Positions 3,478 to 49,300 of a stretch of 64,000 nucleotides of DNA are shown one piece after another. This DNA comes from a phage. The stretch lies in sequence record PZ179880.1, one strand, 5' to 3'. Each line of letters starts with the position of its first letter. Positions within the stretch are counted from its first letter, which is position 1. A model generated the notes under the pieces. The model was not told the origin of the DNA, searched no databases, and saw only the letters and a program-made list of their open reading frames with translations. The translations under genes and the position numbers were made by a program.

Positions 3478-3624
3478 CTACATGACTGTGATAACTGTCA
3501 TGATAACACGTTGAATTCCGAACGCAAGAAGACCTCCTGCTACGGCAGGAACAACACCTAAACCCGCCAGTAAAATGCTACCGGATACTAATGCAGCGCT
3601 TGTAATACCTATGAATGGACTCAT
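3478..3624 (-). CDS. Small hydrophobic membrane protein (48 aa), ATGA-coupled to gene 52 stop
   Basis: Hand-translated MSPFIGITSAALVSGSILLAGLGVVPAVAGG...; below track cutoff. Confidence 0.45.
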   Translation of the reverse strand: MSPFIGITSAALVSGSILLAGLGVVPAVAGGLLAFGIQRVIMTVITVM

Positions 3625-4953: not shown

Positions 4954-5094
4954 TTACCATACTAGTGAATGTAGTGCCATAATAACATCAGAAATGAAAA
5001 GCACGACTTGAATTAATCCGAACATTACTCCATAATATAGCGCTATCAATAAAATAGCAAGGGCTACCGAGTAGCCCAAGATTTTCTTAATCAT
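4954..5094 (-). CDS. Small hydrophobic membrane protein (46 aa)
   Basis: Hand-translated MIKKILGYSVALAILLIALYYGVMFGL...; lies between 52 and stp. Confidence 0.4.
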   Translation of the reverse strand: MIKKILGYSVALAILLIALYYGVMFGLIQVVLFISDVIMALHSLVW

Positions 5095-5245
5095 TAGTAG
5101 ATAACAACACAAATGTTAAATATGCACACATACCCTGGGCTAAAGCTTGTGAAAACACACTGCTAGCATCGATACAGATAGTTAAAACACATGCTACTAT
5201 CCAACAAATAAATGAAATAACTCCTAATAATTTTGCAATATTCAT
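5087..5245 (-). CDS. Small hydrophobic membrane protein (52 aa); size and position fit T4 ac but not sequence-verified
   Basis: Hand-translated MNIAKLLGVISFICWIVACVLTICID...; GAGG SD 5 nt upstream. Confidence 0.4.
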   Translation of the reverse strand: MNIAKLLGVISFICWIVACVLTICIDASSVFSQALAQGMCAYLTFVLLSTND

Positions 5246-5252
5246 ATTTTCC

Positions 5253-5333
5253 TCACTGGCGTCCGAAGACGCCTTTAGTTTTAAGATTGTTACGATAGAA
5301 CTGCATCACGTGTTCGTTATGGAAATTACTCAT
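5253..5333 (-). CDS. stp: Stp peptide (26 aa; Stp is known in T4 as a restriction inhibitor and activator of the PrrC anticodon nuclease)
   Basis: Hand-translated [26 protein letters not shown], matching T4 Stp (memory); TAATG overlap with ndd stop. Confidence 0.85.
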
Positions 5334-5788
5334 TAATATGCCTGCAAAACAAATTTAAAGTTATCAGCCAACATACGGTTCATTTCTTCAAGTGTTTGAT
5401 ACTCAGAATGATGATTACGAGTAAACGCTAAAGCTAACTGACCTTTTCCAAATCCCGTCGTCAGAGGTTTCATCTTAGAAGCAGGTAGATAAAATACTGT
5501 GTATGGAACATTGTTATTTGCAATAGTACGCGCGAGCTGGGACCGACGCTGACGAATATGACTTAGAACTGCACTGAATCCTTGCTTAGAACGCTGATTA
5601 CCTACATAAAATCGCGCAGATACACACGGACTATCAAATGGACCACCAAATTTACTCACTAAAAAGTAAAATCCAGGGTTAGATAAAATATCTTTATGCG
5701 GAGTTCCCAAAAACCACTCACCACCCTTGATTGTACCAATAACAGTAGCGCCTGCATTATTCAGATCAGTAACAGTCATGTATTTCAT
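5333..5788 (-). CDS. ndd: Nucleoid disruption protein Ndd
   Basis: 151 aa from [26 protein letters not shown]...; GAGGAAA SD; track ORF extended 16 codons upstream. Confidence 0.9.
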
Positions 5789-5848
5789 ATTAATTTCCTC
5801 TAAATTATTTTCTACTCCAAGGCCACATGAATACACGCGGCCATTAAA

Positions 5849-6064
5849 TTAATCGTCGCAGTCGACGCTCAATTCCCAAAACTCTTCTACGGTATAAGTT
5901 TCAGTATCATTTTCAATACAGAAACGTTCATTACTGTTATTTGCTAAAGTAGCATTAACTGTCATTTTTTCGCTAGTGCTCTTAAGAGGTGAAATACGAA
6001 TTAACTGATCACCATTATCTAAACAGAAAATTTCACCAACTTTTACATCTTTAAAAATTTTCAT
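5849..6064 (-). CDS. Hypothetical protein (71 aa)
   Basis: Minus-strand ORF downstream of ndd. Confidence 0.5.
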   Translation of the reverse strand: MKIFKDVKVGEIFCLDNGDQLIRISPLKSTSEKMTVNATLANNSNERFCIENDTETYTVEEFWELSVDCDD

Positions 6065-6072
6065 AATTCACC

Positions 6073-6180
6073 TCAGGGAGTATAAAATCCAAATGCAGTT
6101 GTTGACCATCCCATCCAATATGGGATATTTGCGCCAATGTAAAATACAAGAATATAAAACCAAATGCTTAGTAAATTCAT
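6073..6180 (-). CDS. Small hydrophobic peptide (35 aa)
   Basis: Hand-translated MNLLSIWFYILVFYIGANIPYWMGW...; start overlaps upstream stop. Confidence 0.3.
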   Translation of the reverse strand: MNLLSIWFYILVFYIGANIPYWMGWSTTAFGFYTP

Positions 6181-6377
6181 TATTTTACACCATTCCAAAT
6201 TGTTTCAACCACAGATTTCAAACCATTTTGGTGAATATCCATTCCGACAACTGCCATCAAATAGATTCCAACCACAACTGAAACCAAGGCGAAAATCAGC
6301 ATGAAAATGAATAAAGCTGGAAAAATATTATCGAAAAACCATTCCATAAATGTAAAAGCACTGCGTTTACGCTTCAT
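6180..6377 (-). CDS. Small membrane protein (65 aa from MKRKRSAF...)
   Basis: Track ORF trimmed to ATG with GAGGAAAA SD; long hydrophobic segment. Confidence 0.45.
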   Translation of the reverse strand: MKRKRSAFTFMEWFFDNIFPALFIFMLIFALVSVVVGIYLMAVVGMDIHQNGLKSVVETIWNGVK

Positions 6378-6384
6378 ATTTTCC

Positions 6385-6498
6385 TCACATAAATCCAAAG
6401 TAAGCGTTTAATACATCAATCATTAAAACAATTGGGAATATACTCAAAACTACTAGTATTATAACTACATTCCATATAGCTTTAACAATCTTTTTCAT
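6385..6498 (-). CDS. Small membrane protein (37 aa, MKKIVKAIWNVVIILVVLSIF...)
   Basis: ATG at 6498 with GGAGG SD, just downstream of the early promoter at 6527-6555; track ORF upstream part lies before the TSS. Confidence 0.4.
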   Translation of the reverse strand: MKKIVKAIWNVVIILVVLSIFPIVLMIDVLNAYFGFM

Positions 6499-6526
6499 TT
6501 TCTGTTCCTCCGTAGTTGATAGGGTA

Positions 6527-6555
6527 ATAATACCACAGAGGAACAGTCTTGTAAA
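6527..6555 (-). promoter_or_regulatory. T4-type early promoter (-35 TTTACA, -10 TATTAT, TGn)
   Basis: Minus-strand GTTTACA..N17..TGGTATTAT; part of 63-bp exact repeat also at 59245-59307. Confidence 0.65.
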
Positions 6556-6563
6556 CAACTTTT

Positions 6564-6662
6564 TTAAAAATATTCGTAATAAATGTGAATGCCAATCACT
6601 ACTGCCGAAACTTGCGCAACCCACCATGCACAAGCAATAAGTACAGAATTCAAAATTTTCAT
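6564..6662 (-). CDS. Small hydrophobic peptide (32 aa)
   Basis: Hand-translated MKILNSVLIACAWWVAQVSAVVIG...; GAGG SD. Confidence 0.3.
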   Translation of the reverse strand: MKILNSVLIACAWWVAQVSAVVIGIHIYYEYF

Positions 6663-6745
6663 AATAACCTCATCACAAAAGTAAATGTTAAACAAATTAA
6701 TGGAATACTAATTAACCAAATAAAACACCACCATAATGAACTCAT
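6659..6745 (-). CDS. Small hydrophobic peptide (28 aa)
   Basis: Hand-translated MSSLWWCFIWLISIPLICLTF...; ATGA overlaps at both ends. Confidence 0.3.
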   Translation of the reverse strand: MSSLWWCFIWLISIPLICLTFTFVMRLL

Positions 6746-7014
6746 AGTTCAATCTCAGCGATTTTCATTTCATTACTATTAATAGCCGCTTTAAGACTAT
6801 CTGAAAGAATTACATTCCAGTGGTCATTCATATGACCATTAACCAAGCGTGTAATTTCTTCGGGAGTTGAAAAATAAGGCGTATCAGACTCCCAATGCGA
6901 TAGTCCCAAGCGAGTATAAATCATACCTTCATCATCGCTAGAATATTCAACTGACACAAACTCATCAGTTATTTTATGTTTAGCGTAATAAAATTTAAAT
7001 TTCATTTTACTCAA
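6742..7014 (-). CDS. Hypothetical protein (90 aa)
   Basis: Minus-strand ORF, start overlaps upstream stop. Confidence 0.5.
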   Translation of the reverse strand: MSKMKFKFYYAKHKITDEFVSVEYSSDDEGMIYTRLGLSHWESDTPYFSTPEEITRLVNGHMNDHWNVILSDSLKAAINSNEMKIAEIEL

Positions 7015-7217
7015 TAATCCGCTAAAAGATCGACGATTGCATCACGAAGACACTTATTCGCAATACGCTTAAGAGCAATTTCAGTTTCTGGAGCATTTTG
7101 AATAATCATTGAATTCAATTCAGCCTCAGCAAACTGAAGTTCTTTAACTAATTCAGCTTTATATTTTCCTTGCCCTTTCTTAGCTTTTGCTCGTTTTAAT
7201 TCAGCTGTAGTAAACAT
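7011..7217 (-). CDS. Hypothetical protein (68 aa from MFTTAELKRAKAKKGQ...)
   Basis: Track ORF trimmed to ATG at 7217 (GGAGA SD), which lies downstream of the promoter at 7252-7280. Confidence 0.45.
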   Translation of the reverse strand: MFTTAELKRAKAKKGQGKYKAELVKELQFAEAELNSMIIQNAPETEIALKRIANKCLRDAIVDLLADY

Positions 7218-7251
7218 TTTATTCTCCAAATCCGTATCAGTTGATAGTTGT

Positions 7252-7280
7252 ATAGTACCACAGTCCTTGTGGTATGTAAA
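7252..7280 (-). promoter_or_regulatory. T4-type early promoter (-35 TTTACA, -10 TACTAT, TGn, UP element)
   Basis: Minus-strand GTTTACA..N17..TGGTACTAT downstream of denB stop. Confidence 0.65.
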
Positions 7281-7297
7281 CTGTTTTGTGAAAATTT

Positions 7298-7855
7298 TTA
7301 AATGGAAAGATACCATCCGTTGTAGTTGCTTTTTCTTACAACCTTACGAAGGTCTTCTCTATCACCGATGAACTTCGGAGTGTACTGGATGACACCTGGA
7401 TGAATTTCTTTAGTGTTGAATATAATTATACAGTCAGCGACTTGATGATTTAGAATGGGCCCTAGATTTATTCCAGAACCGTATGGATACTCTCCGCTGC
7501 ATCCGGTTGTTACCGAAATCCAACGTGAGTCAGTTTGATGTGTTTTGACTTCTACACGAAGCCCGCAGTATTTTGGATGCGCCAGTACATCCCACGCATA
7601 TGTATACGGGTCATTAACATCCTCTTGGCCTTTGTTAACGTACCCGCTTAGCCAATCTGCTACAAAAAATTCTGCGTACACAGCGATACGACATCTTTCA
7701 ATAACTTCTGCTTTATCCTGATTAGGATTTTGTTTTAAAGAGTATCTTGCTGTATCAGCAATTTTGACCTTCATTTCACTAGTCAAATCATTGTTCGATA
7801 GGGTAAATGTCGGAATCTGAAATAGTCTCTGTAAACCCGGATTCGTTTTCTGCAT
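7298..7855 (-). CDS. denB: Endonuclease IV DenB (dC-specific ssDNA endonuclease)
   Basis: 185 aa MQKTNPGLQRLFQIPTFTLSNNDL... matches T4 DenB in sequence and length (memory). Confidence 0.9.
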   Translation of the reverse strand: MQKTNPGLQRLFQIPTFTLSNNDLTSEMKVKIADTARYSLKQNPNQDKAEVIERCRIAVYAEFFVADWLSGYVNKGQEDVNDPYTYAWDVLAHPKYCGLRVEVKTHQTDSRWISVTTGCSGEYPYGSGINLGPILNHQVADCIIIFNTKEIHPGVIQYTPKFIGDREDLRKVVRKSNYNGWYLSI

Positions 7856-8117
7856 TTAGACTTTCCTTTTTACCGCTGAGATAAGCGTTATATACTTTAA
7901 GAGTACCATAATAAATTCTGTCATTTTCATCTAAAGACTCACGGTCGAGTTCATCGAGTTCCTTTTTATCCATGACTATAACATCATTACAGTAAAGAAA
8001 CCCAAGTTTTTCGTGACCAAACTCAAATTTATTGCAGTACACAATATTAGCGTGATGATTTCCGTGTAGATTAATCTCTTTTATGTCGGAATCACCGATA
8101 TTCATACAATAAATCAT
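7788..8117 (-). CDS. Hypothetical protein (109 aa), 3' end overlaps denB start
   Basis: Minus-strand ORF between rIIB and denB. Confidence 0.5.
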   Translation of the reverse strand: MIYCMNIGDSDIKEINLHGNHHANIVYCNKFEFGHEKLGFLYCNDVIVMDKKELDELDRESLDENDRIYYGTLKVYNAYLSGKKESLNAENESGFTETISDSDIYPIEQ

Positions 8118-14083: not shown

Positions 14084-14260
14084 TTACCCTTTAAGTAAGT
14101 CGTAAAATCCACCATTCACATGCTTAGGAGCGGAAACTAACCGAATAGCAATCCGATGACAATCAGGACATACATCAGTATCCCTTTCAGAAATTTTCTT
14201 GATTTTTTCGTATTCTTTTGCGCAGTCTTTGGATTGGCATTTATAATCATAAAGCGGCAT
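14084..14260 (-). CDS. Small zinc-ribbon protein (58 aa)
   Basis: Hand-translated MPLYDYKCQSKDCAKEYEKIKKISERDTDVCPDCHR... with two CxxC pairs. Confidence 0.4.
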   Translation of the reverse strand: MPLYDYKCQSKDCAKEYEKIKKISERDTDVCPDCHRIAIRLVSAPKHVNGGFYDLLKG

Positions 14261-26509: not shown

Positions 26510-26710
26510 ATGGCACAAAAATTAATGGCACTTGTTAATGCCATCAAAGGTAATAAGAAACGTATAGCTTTTACTATTTCTGCTATGGTAGGAATTTTAC
26601 TCTGGAACTTTATTTTATCACCAATTGCAATTGCGCATGGTGTTAATATTCCAGTAGTTACTCTTGATACATTCGTAGATCTAGCATTTGCTTTAGTTGG
26701 GTTAATTTAA
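26510..26710 (+). CDS. Small membrane protein (66 aa) on the plus strand, convergent with gene 61
   Basis: Strong SD AAAGGAGG 6 nt before ATG; two hydrophobic segments; 3' end overlaps gene 61 stop by 4 nt. Confidence 0.4.
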   Translation: MAQKLMALVNAIKGNKKRIAFTISAMVGILLWNFILSPIAIAHGVNIPVVTLDTFVDLAFALVGLI

Positions 26711-33746: not shown

Positions 33747-33896
33747 TCAATTGATACATTCATATTTAACTTGTAACAGTAATAAACTCCACCCTATAAT
33801 AAGCGTTGGAATCATAAGAGGAACCGTTACACTATAGTATATACTTATTATAATCATCAAGATTAAAAGCAACACTGCTATAATTTTGCTTTTCAT
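33747..33896 (-). CDS. Small hydrophobic membrane protein (49 aa), ATGA-coupled to imm stop
   Basis: Hand-translated MKSKIIAVLLLILMIIISIYYSVTVPLMIP... Confidence 0.35.
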   Translation of the reverse strand: MKSKIIAVLLLILMIIISIYYSVTVPLMIPTLIIGWSLLLLQVKYECIN

Positions 33897-42953: not shown

Positions 42954-43969
42954 TGTGTTGCCTCTACATATAACTGATTTGCATATTGAATAAGTGCTTC
43001 ACGGTCAGAATCAGTGATGTCTGGAATTGCATTAATGTATTCTTCCATCAACGTCTGAAGAGATTGAACTTCAACTTCTTCACTGTCATCTGACTCGACA
43101 GAGTTATCAATCTTTGACACAACTCGTAATGAATGCACAACTTTTTCTAGTTCAGATTCGAACTTCGTTAGATTTTTGTCTACTTCAGTTACTATAACAC
43201 GTACTGATAGATTTGTAAAATCTTTATAGTCAATTTTTCCTTTAAATGGATAATGAATTCTACGATGCCAGGTAGTGTTGTTTGGAATAAATTCCATTCG
43301 TTCTGTTTCTGTATCAAACATCCAGAACCCACGAGGGTCATTCTCGTCACCTGCAGTTAGTGTCCATGGTGTCCCAATATATCTGACGTTAGCAGCCTCA
43401 GAGATAGTATGGAAGTGACCAGACCACACCTCTTTATAAGTCTTAAGGAAATCAGGTTCAAGACCGTGAGATTTCATTCCTTTATAAAAATAAAATCCAT
43501 TCAGTTCCCAGTGACCGACGCAAAAAGAAGCAGATGAAGTTTTGATGTGCTCAAGAATTTCACCAGTATTTTCTTCACACATCCAAGGAATTAAATCAAT
43601 TAAACATCCGTCAAAATCTACTGTAGTAGGCTTATCATATACTTTAACATTAGGATATTTAGCCAAAAGCTCAGTAGAGGCATTTGGAGTTAAAGTATTT
43701 TTAAAGTGCATATCATGGTTTCCTACAACAGTATGTAGGGTAATACCAGCATCATCAAGCATTTGAACTATTTCACGAGCGAACTCCATAGTTTTATGCG
43801 TGATTGCTTTTCGCACATCAAAAATATCGCCGTATTGAATCCATGTAGTAATTCCATTTTTCTTAGAATATTCTATTGCTTGTTTAATTCCATCCAACTG
43901 AATGGATTGAACCCACTCATCATCGGCTTTAACGCCTAAATGCCAATCACCTAAATTTAAAATTTTCAT
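42950..43969 (-). CDS. 47: Recombination nuclease subunit gp47 (Mre11/SbcD-like phosphoesterase)
   Basis: 339 aa; metallophosphatase motifs DWHLG, GDIFD, GNHD; same length as T4 gp47. Confidence 0.95.
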   Translation of the reverse strand: MKILNLGDWHLGVKADDEWVQSIQLDGIKQAIEYSKKNGITTWIQYGDIFDVRKAITHKTMEFAREIVQMLDDAGITLHTVVGNHDMHFKNTLTPNASTELLAKYPNVKVYDKPTTVDFDGCLIDLIPWMCEENTGEILEHIKTSSASFCVGHWELNGFYFYKGMKSHGLEPDFLKTYKEVWSGHFHTISEAANVRYIGTPWTLTAGDENDPRGFWMFDTETERMEFIPNNTTWHRRIHYPFKGKIDYKDFTNLSVRVIVTEVDKNLTKFESELEKVVHSLRVVSKIDNSVESDDSEEVEVQSLQTLMEEYINAIPDITDSDREALIQYANQLYVEATQ

Positions 43970-44106
43970 ATATCAAGAACCGTCATTGAAATGCAAAATA
44001 AAATTATTGAAATAAACCCATCTGGCGTGCTAAAGAAACCAATCCAGCATGCTCTAGTGAATAGATAAAATGCAAGAAAAAGTATCACATATCCAAGAAA
44101 TATCAT
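43966..44106 (-). CDS. Small hydrophobic membrane protein (46 aa), ATGA-coupled to gene 47 start
   Basis: Hand-translated MIFLGYVILFLAFYLFTRACWIGFF...; GGAG SD. Confidence 0.35.
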   Translation of the reverse strand: MIFLGYVILFLAFYLFTRACWIGFFSTPDGFISIILFCISMTVLDI

Positions 44107-49063: not shown

Positions 49064-49300
49064 CTATTCCTTACTAAGAGCAGCATTCAGCGTGTTAGTA
49101 ATTTTATCCAGACGCTCATTGAACTCGCTAGAAGATAGTCCTTTTTCTGGAGAAATTAAGCTAATCACGAAAAATATAGCAATAAAAGGAATAAGAAAAA
49201 TAGCACCAACTGCCATAAACAAAAAGAACGTTACAGTTGTAAGAAAATCAGCTAAACCTTTACGAAATTTATACATATTTACCCTTAATTGATTAACCAA
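49064..49300 (-). CDS. Small membrane protein (78 aa)
   Basis: Long hydrophobic segment FFLFMAVGAIFLIPFIAIFFVISLI. Confidence 0.45.
   Translation of the reverse strand: MVNQLRVNMYKFRKGLADFLTTVTFFLFMAVGAIFLIPFIAIFFVISLISPEKGLSSSEFNERLDKITNTLNAALSKE

Follow-up and report, generated by a model that had tools for sequence, protein, structure and literature searches.

The interval between ndd and denB of a T4-like phage carries the accessory genes ndd.1–ndd.6, encoding small, mostly hydrophobic peptides, with a promoter-hairpin element before ndd.4

We analyzed a 64,000-nucleotide stretch of phage DNA (sequence record PZ179880.1), hereafter referred to as the window, whose source is a Tequatrovirus that is T4-like, approximately 94% identical to T4, and distinct from T4 itself. 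By sequence, the mini-ORFs located between ndd and denB are the T4-type genes ndd.2–ndd.6, which have long been annotated, with ndd.1 adjoining them (Table 1). T4 annotation places ndd.1–ndd.6 between ndd and denB (NC_000866, T4p269-T4p275, comprising ndd.1, ndd.2, ndd.2a/ndd.3, ndd.4, ndd.5, and ndd.6), and location, strand, order, and predicted membrane status were alike in the window, with products 88–97% identical to their T4 counterparts over their full length. All eight ORFs of the interval (ndd.1–ndd.6, orfH, and orfI) had PHROG matches. The ndd.1–ndd.6 set, which has GenBank annotations and PHROGs entries, is already known and does not represent a new type of element.

Table 1. Features of the ndd–denB interval and of the other mini-gene sites in the window; pN/pS values are from Tequatrovirus loci.
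Feature	Position	Strand	Description	Identity to T4	PHROG	pN/pS
motA.1-type mini-gene	3478-3624	-	48 aa, hydrophobic; T4 motA.1 position; ATGA overlap with gene 52		phrog_3487	
52.1	4954-5094	-	46 aa, hydrophobic		52.1/ac pair: phrog_3595, phrog_2501	
ac	5087-5245	-	52 aa, hydrophobic		52.1/ac pair: phrog_3595, phrog_2501	
ndd	5333-5788	-	Nucleoid disruption protein, 151 aa; downstream flank	96%		
Two stem-loops	5854-5867 and 5821-5842	-	At and after the ndd.1 stop; fold -23.9 kcal/mol, z = -3.3; terminator-like match			
ndd.1	5849-6064	-	71 aa, soluble, acidic; closes its unit, 8 nt past ndd.2	97%	phrog_2183	0.08
ndd.2	6073-6180	-	35 aa, aromatic-rich, zero charged residues; motif G.N.PYW.G	88%	phrog_4135	0.13
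ndd.3	6180-6377	-	65 aa; basic N-terminus, one predicted transmembrane segment, C-terminal motif GLKSVVE.IWNG; Pfam DUF7248		phrog_2401	0.09
ndd.4	6385-6498	-	37 aa, predicted single-pass, basic N-terminus MKKIVKAIWN	91%	phrog_3098	
Spacer element, PeSL-type	6502-6556	-	Early promoter nested in 15-bp hairpin; consensus scan 10/12 plus a TG			
ndd.5	6564-6662	-	32 aa, hydrophobic; ATGA overlap with ndd.6	96%	phrog_5011	0.06
ndd.6	6659-6745	-	28 aa, hydrophobic; motif WC.IW...IP.IC	92%	phrog_8851	0.15
orfH	6742-7005	-	87 aa, soluble, acidic; accessory, not in T4; stop overlaps ndd.6 start (ATGA)		phrog_2390	0.36
orfI	7011-7217	-	68 aa, soluble; accessory, not in T4; RB32ORF266c-like		phrog_4535	0.06
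Upstream early promoter	7252-7280	-	GTTTACA, 17-nt spacer, TACTAT; heads orfI-orfH-ndd.6-ndd.5; consensus scan 9/12 plus a TG			
denB	7298-7855	-	Endonuclease IV, 185 aa; upstream flank	98%		
imm-downstream mini-gene	33747-33896	-	49 aa, hydrophobic; 4-nt overlap with imm; T4 imm.1 position		phrog_3610	
47.1-position mini-gene	43966-44106	-	46 aa, hydrophobic; between the alpha-glucosyltransferase gene and gene 47; 4-nt overlap with gene 47 start		phrog_6693	

In contrast to T4, the window phage had two additional genes, orfH and orfI, between ndd.6 and denB. Its ndd.4 begins at a downstream ATG, the upstream in-frame ATG of T4 being absent, and its ndd.3 is one 65-aa ORF, whereas the T4 reference has an ndd.2a/ndd.3 split. 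This split results from a one-nucleotide difference between the reference and re-sequenced T4 together with three related phages, in which ndd.3 is likewise a single 65-aa ORF.

The genes are arranged head-to-tail on the minus strand in two units, orfI-orfH-ndd.6-ndd.5 and ndd.4-ndd.3-ndd.2-ndd.1, each preceded by a sigma-70-type T4 early promoter. A preliminary description of this DNA had seen a single chain of mini-ORFs linked by stop-start overlaps. The packing is indeed tight, but the chain is broken into the two units by a 65-nt spacer with a promoter and a hairpin at the ndd.5/ndd.4 junction, and overlaps are found at two of the four mini-ORF junctions (ATGA at ndd.6/ndd.5, TAATG at ndd.3/ndd.2). 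A third ATGA overlap joins the upstream 87-aa orfH to ndd.6, while the ndd.4/ndd.3 and ndd.2/ndd.1 junctions are gaps of 7 and 8 nt, respectively, both with the stop codon within a GAGG Shine-Dalgarno sequence. Given that stop and start codons inside the units overlap or lie 5–8 nt apart, with a Shine-Dalgarno sequence formed around the preceding stop, ribosomes would be able to pass from gene to gene, and the packing permits translational coupling. On one strand, 99% of a 673-nt segment is occupied by five ATG ORFs, each 28 aa or longer, a coverage reached in 0 of 5000 Markov simulations (mean 30%).

Phage SA20RB has an annotated T4 early promoter at the homologue of the site upstream of orfI; in the present interval, the plus strand had weak promoter-like matches only. 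The spacer promoter, also annotated as a promoter in SA20RB, has its GTTTACA box at 6556-6550 and its TATTAT box at 6532-6527. The surrounding hairpin (fold −23.2 kcal/mol, z = −4.5) has its 5′ arm (6546-6532) inside the promoter spacer, and its 3′ arm (6516-6502) takes in GGAGG, the Shine-Dalgarno sequence of ndd.4. In the window, the computed pairing probability of this Shine-Dalgarno sequence was 1.00 for read-through RNA and 0.16 for RNA beginning at the predicted start of transcription (near 6520); the corresponding means over 15 loci were 0.91 and 0.34, to be read beside an upstream-shuffled control that already reached 0.69. Other genera had an analogous promoter and hairpin upstream of ndd.4. 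RNAalifold applied to the ndd.4 leaders found no consensus structure and zero shared pairs, because the hairpins of different genera are in different registers, and the comparison across loci was made with per-sequence pairing probabilities. At the other end of the ndd.4-ndd.1 unit, SA20RB has an annotated terminator at the homologue of 5821-5867, and the two stem-loops found there probably mark the 3′ terminus of the transcript or a processing barrier upstream of ndd.

The spacer element resembles promoter-early stem-loops (PeSLs), described from hyperplastic regions of T4-like phages (Arbiol 2010; Comeau 2014, PMC4122927). It shares with them an early-promoter consensus with an overlapping stem-loop in a short intergenic spacer, as well as the gain and loss of neighboring genes among close relatives: orfH was present in 14/20 and orfI in 4/20 Tequatrovirus loci, and an exchange at ndd.4/ndd.5 itself appears in Fig. 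6A of Comeau 2014 (PMC4122927). The difference is that the 3′ arm of the stem here covers the ndd.4 ribosome-binding site. The element may therefore also gate translation, a role that is absent from the excerpted text of Comeau 2014 (PMC4122927). In T4, hairpins occlude the ribosome-binding sites of gene e, soc, 49, and I-TevI on early read-through transcripts. There, too, a promoter lies in or beside the hairpin and the ribosome-binding site is exposed solely on transcripts from that promoter, but these promoters are late or middle, whereas the one before ndd.4 is early and its effect is predicted.

Comparison with related phages indicates that all these ORFs are real genes under purifying selection. 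With the exception of two alleles, one with a nonsense mutation and one with a frameshift, ndd.1–ndd.6 were intact in 20/20 Tequatrovirus loci. The related loci compared here are non-independent samples. For ndd.1, ndd.2, ndd.3, ndd.5, and ndd.6, pN/pS in the annotated frame was 0.06–0.15, compared with values of about 0.4 to 20 when the two alternative frames were read and with 0.11 and 0.04 for the controls ndd and denB, and 11 of the 12 variable sites of ndd.5 fell at codon position 3. The within-genus pN/pS of ndd.4 (0.64) is uninformative, with 8 variable sites only, and support for this gene therefore comes from cross-genus conservation. Among 31 loci outside Tequatrovirus, relatives were found of Ndd.4 in 27, of Ndd.6 in 15, of Ndd.3 in 13, and of Ndd.2 in 10; Ndd.5 was found in none of the 31 and was confined to Tequatrovirus. 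Ndd.4 was thus the most widely conserved member, with 55–61% identity in several genera in which Ndd is 55–63% identical, and Ndd.4, Ndd.3, Ndd.2, and Ndd.6 were retained in other genera where Ndd is merely 45–66% identical. Collinearity was kept across genera everywhere except at one locus (L026), where Ndd.2 precedes Ndd.3, and the overlaps of ndd.3 with its next gene and of orfH with ndd.6 were retained in other genera together with the motifs. The mini-ORFs therefore stand as genuine coding sequences; absence of conserved frames in related phages, which the preliminary description had named as evidence against its reading, is clearly not what the Tequatrovirus and other-genus loci revealed.

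Also borne out were the five mini-ORFs of 28–65 aa on the minus strand, four of them below 60 aa, each with a single hydrophobic stretch. Maximum Kyte-Doolittle scores over 19 residues were 1.64 in ndd.2 and 2.18–3.05 in the other four. Hydrophobicity did not extend to the low end of the described interval (5849-6064), where ndd.1 codes for a soluble protein. Among 195 spurious alternative-frame ATG ORFs of 25–70 aa inside long genes of the window, 20.5% reached a score of at least 1.6 and 9.7% a score of at least 2.0. Given that hydrophobic ORFs are this frequent by chance in the T-rich sequence of the window, membrane insertion itself is predicted from hydropathy alone, while the membrane location of Ndd.2–Ndd.6 is well supported by hydropathy together with charge distribution. 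By the positive-inside rule, Ndd.3 and Ndd.4 are predicted to adopt an N-in/C-out topology, which would place the GLKSVVE.IWNG tail of Ndd.3 and an invariant Asp of Ndd.4 on the periplasmic face. The label of membrane-targeted effectors is reasonable but unproven for these peptides.

The hydrophobic products represent five mutually unrelated families (Ndd.2, Ndd.3/DUF7248, Ndd.4, Ndd.5, and Ndd.6), and pairwise searches of a 13-sequence database detected no paralogy among the mini-proteins or with Imm or Ac. Ndd.3 matched Pfam PF23906 (DUF7248) with 73.6 bits against a gathering cut-off of 27 (E = 1.3e-20), its only match in Pfam or NCBIfam, and Ndd.2, Ndd.4, Ndd.5, and Ndd.6 had none in either. 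Residues G52, L53, K54, and G63 were invariant in the Ndd.3 family alignment, and the family-wide invariant Asp of Ndd.4 lies directly past the hydrophobic stretch. A degenerate DNA pattern for GLKSVVE.IWNG, used to look for bacterial homologues of Ndd.3, gave 0 matches in 185,579 species genomes. An IMG/VR scan for Ndd.4 away from the ndd neighborhood returned the same T4-like contigs only, a search of solved structures gave no relative of Ndd.1, and a literature search on DUF7248 and the PHROG identifiers found nothing.

Similar hydrophobic mini-ORFs had been reported from further sites in the window and regarded as unlisted. Real mini-genes were present at all of those sites, but none was overlooked: together with the mini-ORFs upstream of ndd, they are T4 ndd.2–ndd.6, motA.1, 52.1, ac, and two further mini-genes, all catalogued. 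Of the latter two, the product of the gene downstream of imm had tblastn matches in 369 phage records, and the other occupies the position of T4 47.1, a gene in which transposon insertions are tolerated.

Early-promoter motifs of the T4 type precede the ndd.x genes in the window, and evidence on early RNA itself comes from T4, in which published data class the ndd.2–ndd.6 transcripts as “early”. In a T4 proteome time course, Ndd.1 was detected as an early protein, and mass spectrometry did not register Ndd.2–Ndd.6, as expected for tiny hydrophobic peptides. T4 sa-delta-9, with a deletion from 52.1 through denB, was viable with half the wild-type yield (Kutter et al., 2018). Transposon insertions were tolerated in every T4 ndd.x gene with normal growth on K-12, and carried no cost against RexAB in the same experiment in which rIIA and rIIB fell at least 100-fold.

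The account that we favor, with a probability of roughly 0.6, is that of a T4-type early accessory set, ndd.1–ndd.6 plus two cassette genes, whose peptides act as small envelope modulators and whose ndd.4 is gated by a hairpin. The peptides would be produced in the first minutes of infection and then inserted in the host inner membrane, where each could serve as a small accessory modulator of one host (or phage) envelope component. We propose that such functions are advantageous on some hosts or under some conditions only, which would explain genes that are conserved though dispensable in the laboratory. On RNA reading through from the upstream promoter, the ndd.4 ribosome-binding site would be locked in the hairpin, while RNA from the internal promoter would lack the 5′ arm and leave ndd.4 translatable.

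Bacterial small inner-membrane regulators such as AcrZ, MgtS, MgrB, and KdpF, which are single-pass proteins of 30–65 aa that bind larger membrane proteins, provide a working model for the Ndd peptides; this is an analogy only, with no homology in family searches. In the same genome, the T4 acridine-resistance product Ac (51 aa), 52.1, and the superinfection-immunity protein Imm (83 aa) are also small hydrophobic products of packed early genes, and Ac and Imm show that such peptides can have envelope-level phenotypes, although a sequence relationship to any Ndd peptide was undetectable. The idea that the peptides are membrane anchors for Ndd was set aside: cloned ndd alone disrupts the nucleoid, and two loci (L034 and L035) carry ndd without any relative of Ndd.2–Ndd.6.

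A counter-defence role, in which at least one peptide blocks a membrane-embedded abortive-infection or exclusion system of the host, as rIIA/rIIB act on RexAB and Stp on a restriction enzyme, seems unlikely to us. The genes share their early accessory region with stp, rIIB, and, further along, arn-type genes, and the stp product is annotated in one record as a type IC restriction inhibitor. Conservation with dispensability on K-12 is, moreover, a typical signature of host-specific accessory genes, and cassettes are gained and lost in this hyperplastic region. However, the ndd.x insertions were cost-free against RexAB under conditions that revealed rIIA and rIIB, no homology to known anti-defence proteins was found in Pfam or NCBIfam, and the main text of HIDEN-SEQ does not mention ndd genes or report an ndd.x anti-defence result; ndd genes are also absent from the CRISPRi-ART main text.

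Somewhat more doubtful still is a narrower form of the envelope-modulator account, which we offer as speculation. Ndd.4, in most cases joined by Ndd.3 and/or Ndd.2 and kept in the same order directly upstream of ndd, might constitute a conserved early inner-membrane module in several T4-like genera, aimed at one host envelope machine (e.g., a transporter, phospholipid synthesis, or a defence sensor anchored in the membrane) and made only from its own early promoter by means of the hairpin gate.

The preliminary description had suggested superinfection exclusion or immunity, in which the envelope would be altered alongside Imm and Sp so that later T-even phages fail to deliver their DNA. Predicted early expression and membrane location do resemble the profile of Imm, imm itself is followed, with an overlap, by a further hydrophobic mini-gene, and the C-terminal tail conserved in Ndd.3 is probably exposed on the periplasmic side. 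On the other hand, imm and sp account for the exclusion phenotype of T4, none of the peptides was similar to Imm (all pairwise E above 0.3 in the 13-sequence database), and we found no exclusion phenotype reported for sa-delta-9 in the literature examined. We consider this role quite improbable.

Lipid or envelope remodeling, with one product responsible for the stimulation of phosphatidylglycerol synthesis that the phage induces, or for resealing the membrane early on, is a very unlikely reading. Sa-delta-9, which lacks ndd.1–ndd.6 among the genes from 52.1 through denB, loses the stimulation of phospholipid synthesis after infection, and several genes of the region were noted as putative membrane proteins (Kutter et al., 2018). 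However, stimulation of phosphatidylglycerol synthesis was also missing in mutants whose only losses were dCTPase, endonuclease IV (denB), and Alc (Kutter et al., 2018), a result that points to denB or cytosine-containing DNA rather than to the mini-genes.

Equally improbable, in our view, are toxic peptides, type I toxin- or holin-like, that would depolarize the membrane and aid host shut-off. The Ndd peptides share size, hydrophobicity, and single-helix architecture with toxins of the Hok/Gef, TisB, Ibs, and DinQ type, and a number of small T4 immediate-early genes are lethal to the host (Kutter et al.). In contrast to these toxins, the ndd.x genes are polycistronic, read from strong early promoters, and probably free of antisense control, and their products matched no curated toxin family in Pfam or NCBIfam. 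The conserved polar and aromatic motifs specific to each family suggest specific partners over generic pores. T4 also needs an energized membrane through most of infection. Finally, chance or non-functional frames, or translation that just keeps ribosomes on the mRNA with the peptides irrelevant, can be rejected as extremely improbable: although hydrophobic ORFs arise easily at this composition, making hydrophobicity by itself non-diagnostic, and although the T4 proteins went unseen by mass spectrometry and insertions were neutral on K-12 and RexAB, the amino-acid-level purifying selection is decisive, motifs are kept across genera despite diverged DNA, and the ORF packing was unmatched in simulation.

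The small early genes of T4 without an assigned role still number well above a hundred, and hydrophobic mini-proteins are the hardest class among them, being missed by mass spectrometry and giving knock-outs that are silent on laboratory hosts. For this class, our analysis provides a ranked shortlist, in which Ndd.4, Ndd.3 (DUF7248), Ndd.2, and Ndd.6 are retained in other genera and have sharply defined motifs, and Ndd.5 belongs to one genus. The promoter-hairpin insulates two translation units from each other and may allow ndd.4 to be translated only from its own transcripts. Should any of these peptides prove to have a host target, that would usefully extend the catalogue of phage host takeover.

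The window comes from a T4-like phage, as shown by gene 52, stp, ndd, denB and their neighbours. Nearly all of the 535 phage records matching 5300–7900 (2.6 kb) were Tequatrovirus; T4 was 94.3% identical over only 82% of this query, and the closest matches to 5800–7300 were phages REP4 and SA20RB (~98%). All genes treated here lie on the minus strand, and the ORFs from ndd to denB have ATG starts preceded by Shine-Dalgarno sequences. T4 records list ndd.1, ndd.2, ndd.2a/ndd.3, ndd.4, ndd.5 and ndd.6 at precisely this position, annotated as hypothetical predicted membrane proteins, and the window products share 88–97% identity with their T4 counterparts. All eight ORFs (ndd.1–ndd.6, orfH and orfI) were assigned a PHROG family, and Ndd.3 corresponds to Pfam DUF7248. 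The preliminary finding correctly recovered genes already annotated in the T4 family and is not novel; the identity and reality of the ndd.x set are nearly certain.

The preliminary description of a coupled chain of hydrophobic mini-ORFs at 5849–6745 was right in substance, as ORF, hydropathy and junction checks found the ORFs, hydrophobic products and overlaps, but the chain is broken by a 65-nt ndd.5–ndd.4 spacer and its low end encodes the soluble Ndd.1. Each of the five mini-products (Ndd.2–Ndd.6) has a single strongly hydrophobic stretch, with a best 19-residue Kyte-Doolittle window (KD19) of 1.64 in Ndd.2 and 2.18–3.05 in the other four. ATGA overlaps join orfH to ndd.6 and ndd.6 to ndd.5, and a TAATG overlap joins ndd.3 to ndd.2; gaps of 7 nt (ndd.4 to ndd.3) and 8 nt (ndd.2 to ndd.1) each have a GAGG Shine-Dalgarno that includes the stop codon, and orfI and orfH are 5 nt apart. 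The hydrophobic mini-ORFs reported elsewhere are also catalogued: motA.1 after gene 52, 52.1 and ac between 52 and stp, a mini-gene overlapping the end of imm, and another between the alpha-glucosyltransferase gene and gene 47. Three further small hydrophobic ORFs were absent from that list, one of which may be spurious (see table).

Features of the window, with pN/pS (pooled, annotated frame, Tequatrovirus loci; ndd and denB as controls) and family HMM matches in the denB–ndd interval of 31 loci from other T4-like genera, which are not independent and some of which served to build the HMMs
Feature	Position	Strand	Length (aa)	pN/pS	Loci	Remarks
ndd	5333–5788	-	151	0.11		control
ndd.1	5849–6064	-	71	0.08	9/31	soluble
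ndd.2	6073–6180	-	35	0.13	10/31	G.N.PYW.G; window copy without charged residues
ndd.3	6180–6377	-	65	0.09	13/31	basic N-terminus, one transmembrane segment, C-terminal GLKSVVE.IWNG, invariant G, L, K, G
ndd.4	6385–6498	-	37	0.64 (only 8 variable sites, uninformative)	27/31	basic N-terminus KKLLKAIWN, one transmembrane segment, invariant Asp, aromatic C-terminus
ndd.5	6564–6662	-	32	0.06	0/31	N-terminus MKILNSVLIAC, lipobox-like L-I-A-C, Cys at position 11
ndd.6	6659–6745	-	28	0.15	15/31	WC.IW...IP.IC
orfH	6742–7005	-	87			soluble
orfI	7011–7217	-	68			soluble
denB	7298–7855	-	185	0.04		control
Early promoter 1	7280–7252	-				GTTTACA-17-TACTAT
Early promoter 2	6555–6527	-				GTTTACA-17-TATTAT
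ndd.4 hairpin element	6502–6556	-				15 bp; -23.2 kcal/mol, z = -4.5
stp/ac hairpin	5240–5290	-				GGCGUC-UUCG-GACGCC; -12.3 kcal/mol, z = -2.7
Hydrophobic ORF	14137–14250	-	37			no PHROG match; may be spurious
Hydrophobic ORF	26510–26710	+				phrog_2024; among few plus-strand ORFs
Hydrophobic ORF	49064–49276	-				phrog_1930

In the T4 reference (NC_000866, locus L052, 1233–1429) the DUF7248 gene is split into a 40-aa ndd.2a and an out-of-frame 26-aa ‘ndd.3’ by a 1-nt difference at codons 2–3 (ATGAACG versus ATGAAGCG), while re-sequenced T4 (L001, MT984581, 2381–2578), RB32, T6 and the window have a single 65-aa ORF, intact at 198 nt in the remaining Tequatrovirus loci examined except for a T2 nonsense allele. 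The split probably reflects either an error in the sequence or a frameshift peculiar to that strain. Several GenBank phage records carry propagated mini-ORF product names that are plainly wrong (‘naphthalene 1,2-dioxygenase’, ‘dNMP kinase’, ‘chaperone for long tail fiber formation’, ‘exopolysaccharide biosynthesis protein’). The lipobox-like motif of Ndd.5 may be the source of an old ‘outer membrane protein’ label; a normal lipoprotein signal peptide would seem to need a longer signal region.

Hydrophobicity by itself is weak evidence in this sequence: among 195 spurious alternative-frame ATG ORFs of 25–70 aa inside the window’s long genes, 20.5% reached a KD19 of 1.6 and 9.7% one of 2.0. ORF packing is not due to chance, with ATG-initiated ORFs 28 aa or longer filling 99% of 673 nt (6073–6745) on one strand, compared with a simulated average of 30% and none of 5000 simulations equalling the observed value. 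Across 20 other Tequatrovirus loci (T4 twice, T2, T6, RB32, Yersinia and Citrobacter phages, and IMG/VR contigs), all ndd.x ORFs were present, in frame and intact, with two exceptions: ndd.3 carries a nonsense codon in a record of a T2 laboratory strain (PV958097, L041), and ndd.6 has a 3'-end frameshift in a single IMG/VR contig (L005); these loss-of-function alleles, natural or laboratory, are consistent with dispensability. The two non-annotated frames gave pN/pS of about 0.4 to 20, and selection on the reading frames is the decisive evidence against chance. Purifying pN/pS, packing and conservation effectively exclude chance or non-functional ORFs.

Conservation of the frames in relatives, suggested as a check in the preliminary description, extends beyond Tequatrovirus. 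Of 36 IMG/VR loci anchored on Ndd, 31 came from other T4-like genera (Ndd 45–66% identical), and the order Ndd.6, Ndd.4, Ndd.3, Ndd.2, Ndd.1, ndd was constant apart from one locus (L026) with Ndd.2 before Ndd.3. Other genera repeat the 4-nt overlaps 3' of ndd.3 and 5' of ndd.6. Sequence comparison found no relationship among the five hydrophobic families, nor between any of them and Imm, Ac, 52.1 or the others compared, and NCBIfam models gave no match for them; a degenerate Ndd.3 motif had no match in 185,579 genomes of bacteria and archaea, and the Ndd.4 alignment retrieved from IMG/VR nothing beyond the same T4-like contigs. In the most distant Ndd-containing locus (L039), a 137-aa ORF (2346–2759) with a lipoprotein-type signal (…LIGC) follows ndd.4 in place of ndd.3/ndd.2, putatively another envelope-directed product in that slot.

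Two T4-type early promoters, both marked as such in the SA20RB annotation, lie in the region. The ndd.5–ndd.4 spacer folds into a hairpin whose 5' arm lies within the promoter spacer and whose 3' arm holds the ndd.4 GGAGG, so that read-through RNA from the upstream promoter would bury this ribosome-binding site and leave ndd.4 translationally closed, while RNA begun ~7 nt past the -10 (near 6520) would not include the 5' arm and would leave ndd.4 open. Among 15 ndd.4 leaders, including T4 and the window, 13 had a recognisable early-type promoter and 11 had GGAG paired with a probability of at least 0.94 by hairpins with lineage-specific arms; mean Shine-Dalgarno pairing probability over the 15 was 0.91 when the RNA reads through from upstream, 0.34 when it begins at the predicted start and 0.69 when the upstream sequence is shuffled. 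The promoter-in-hairpin recurs in other genera, preceding ndd.4 in loci L008, L010, L014, L015, L018, L020, L022, L029, L030 and L032. RNAalifold returned no consensus structure for these leaders, whose hairpins lack a common register, and the arrangement is a recurring one rather than a structure of proven homology. Its counterparts are the promoter-early stem-loop (PeSL) elements that Comeau et al. (PMC4122927) tie to the exchange of cassettes in hyperplastic regions of T4-like phages, with an illustrated example at ndd.4/ndd.5. Two more stem-loops lie 3' of ndd.1. At the stp end, directly ahead of the ac ribosome-binding site, is a tetraloop hairpin typical of stable T4 hairpins, flagged as terminator-like solely on the opposite strand.

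Between ndd.6 and denB, 6742–7217 encodes the soluble orfH and orfI products. T4 lacks both genes; orfH occurs in 14 of 20 Tequatrovirus loci and orfI in 4, and orfH-like genes also lie upstream of ndd.6 in other genera. Promoter/stem-loop spacers flank the pair, as expected under PeSL-mediated cassette shuffling.

The ndd.x set comprises real, conserved, early-promoter-driven, tightly packed genes encoding five unrelated single-helix hydrophobic peptides and a single soluble protein, and laboratory hosts do not require them for phage growth. In T4, Ndd and Ndd.1 are early in both RNA and protein, whereas ndd.2–ndd.6, ac and stp have early transcripts with undetected proteins (Wolfram-Schauerte et al., 2022, Table S2), and the ndd.1–ndd.6 products are stated to be unknown (Kutter et al., 2018). 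T4 with sa-delta-9, a deletion running from 52.1 through denB, remains viable at half yield (Kutter et al., 2018). All ndd.x genes tolerate transposon insertions in the HIDEN-SEQ preprint (ndd.4 at 18/18 TA sites), whose main text makes no mention of ndd genes.

We favor, at a probability of about 0.5 and with bacterial small membrane regulators and T4 Ac and Imm as analogues, a role of the peptides as small accessory modulators of envelope components. They would be embedded in the inner membrane, with Ndd.3 and Ndd.4 presumably N-in/C-out by the positive-inside rule, given three or four Lys/Arg ahead of the helix and a neutral or acidic tail after it, and the conserved periplasm-side motifs may be binding surfaces for host or phage envelope proteins. 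The sequence data are also compatible with stimulation of phosphatidylglycerol synthesis, specific counter-defence, superinfection exclusion (raised, with effectors, in the preliminary description) and depolarising toxins, but direct evidence favors none of the four. Post-infection stimulation of phospholipid synthesis is lost in sa-delta-9, and a mutant without dCTPase, endonuclease IV and Alc likewise lacks phosphatidylglycerol stimulation (Kutter et al., 2018). With respect to defence, ndd.x fitness was unchanged in the delta-rnlA comparison and against RexAB, where rIIA and rIIB fell by log2 -8.6 and -6.8 (HIDEN-SEQ preprint). The residual interest of this region lies in the question of the peptides’ roles and in the putative promoter-hairpin insulation of ndd.4.
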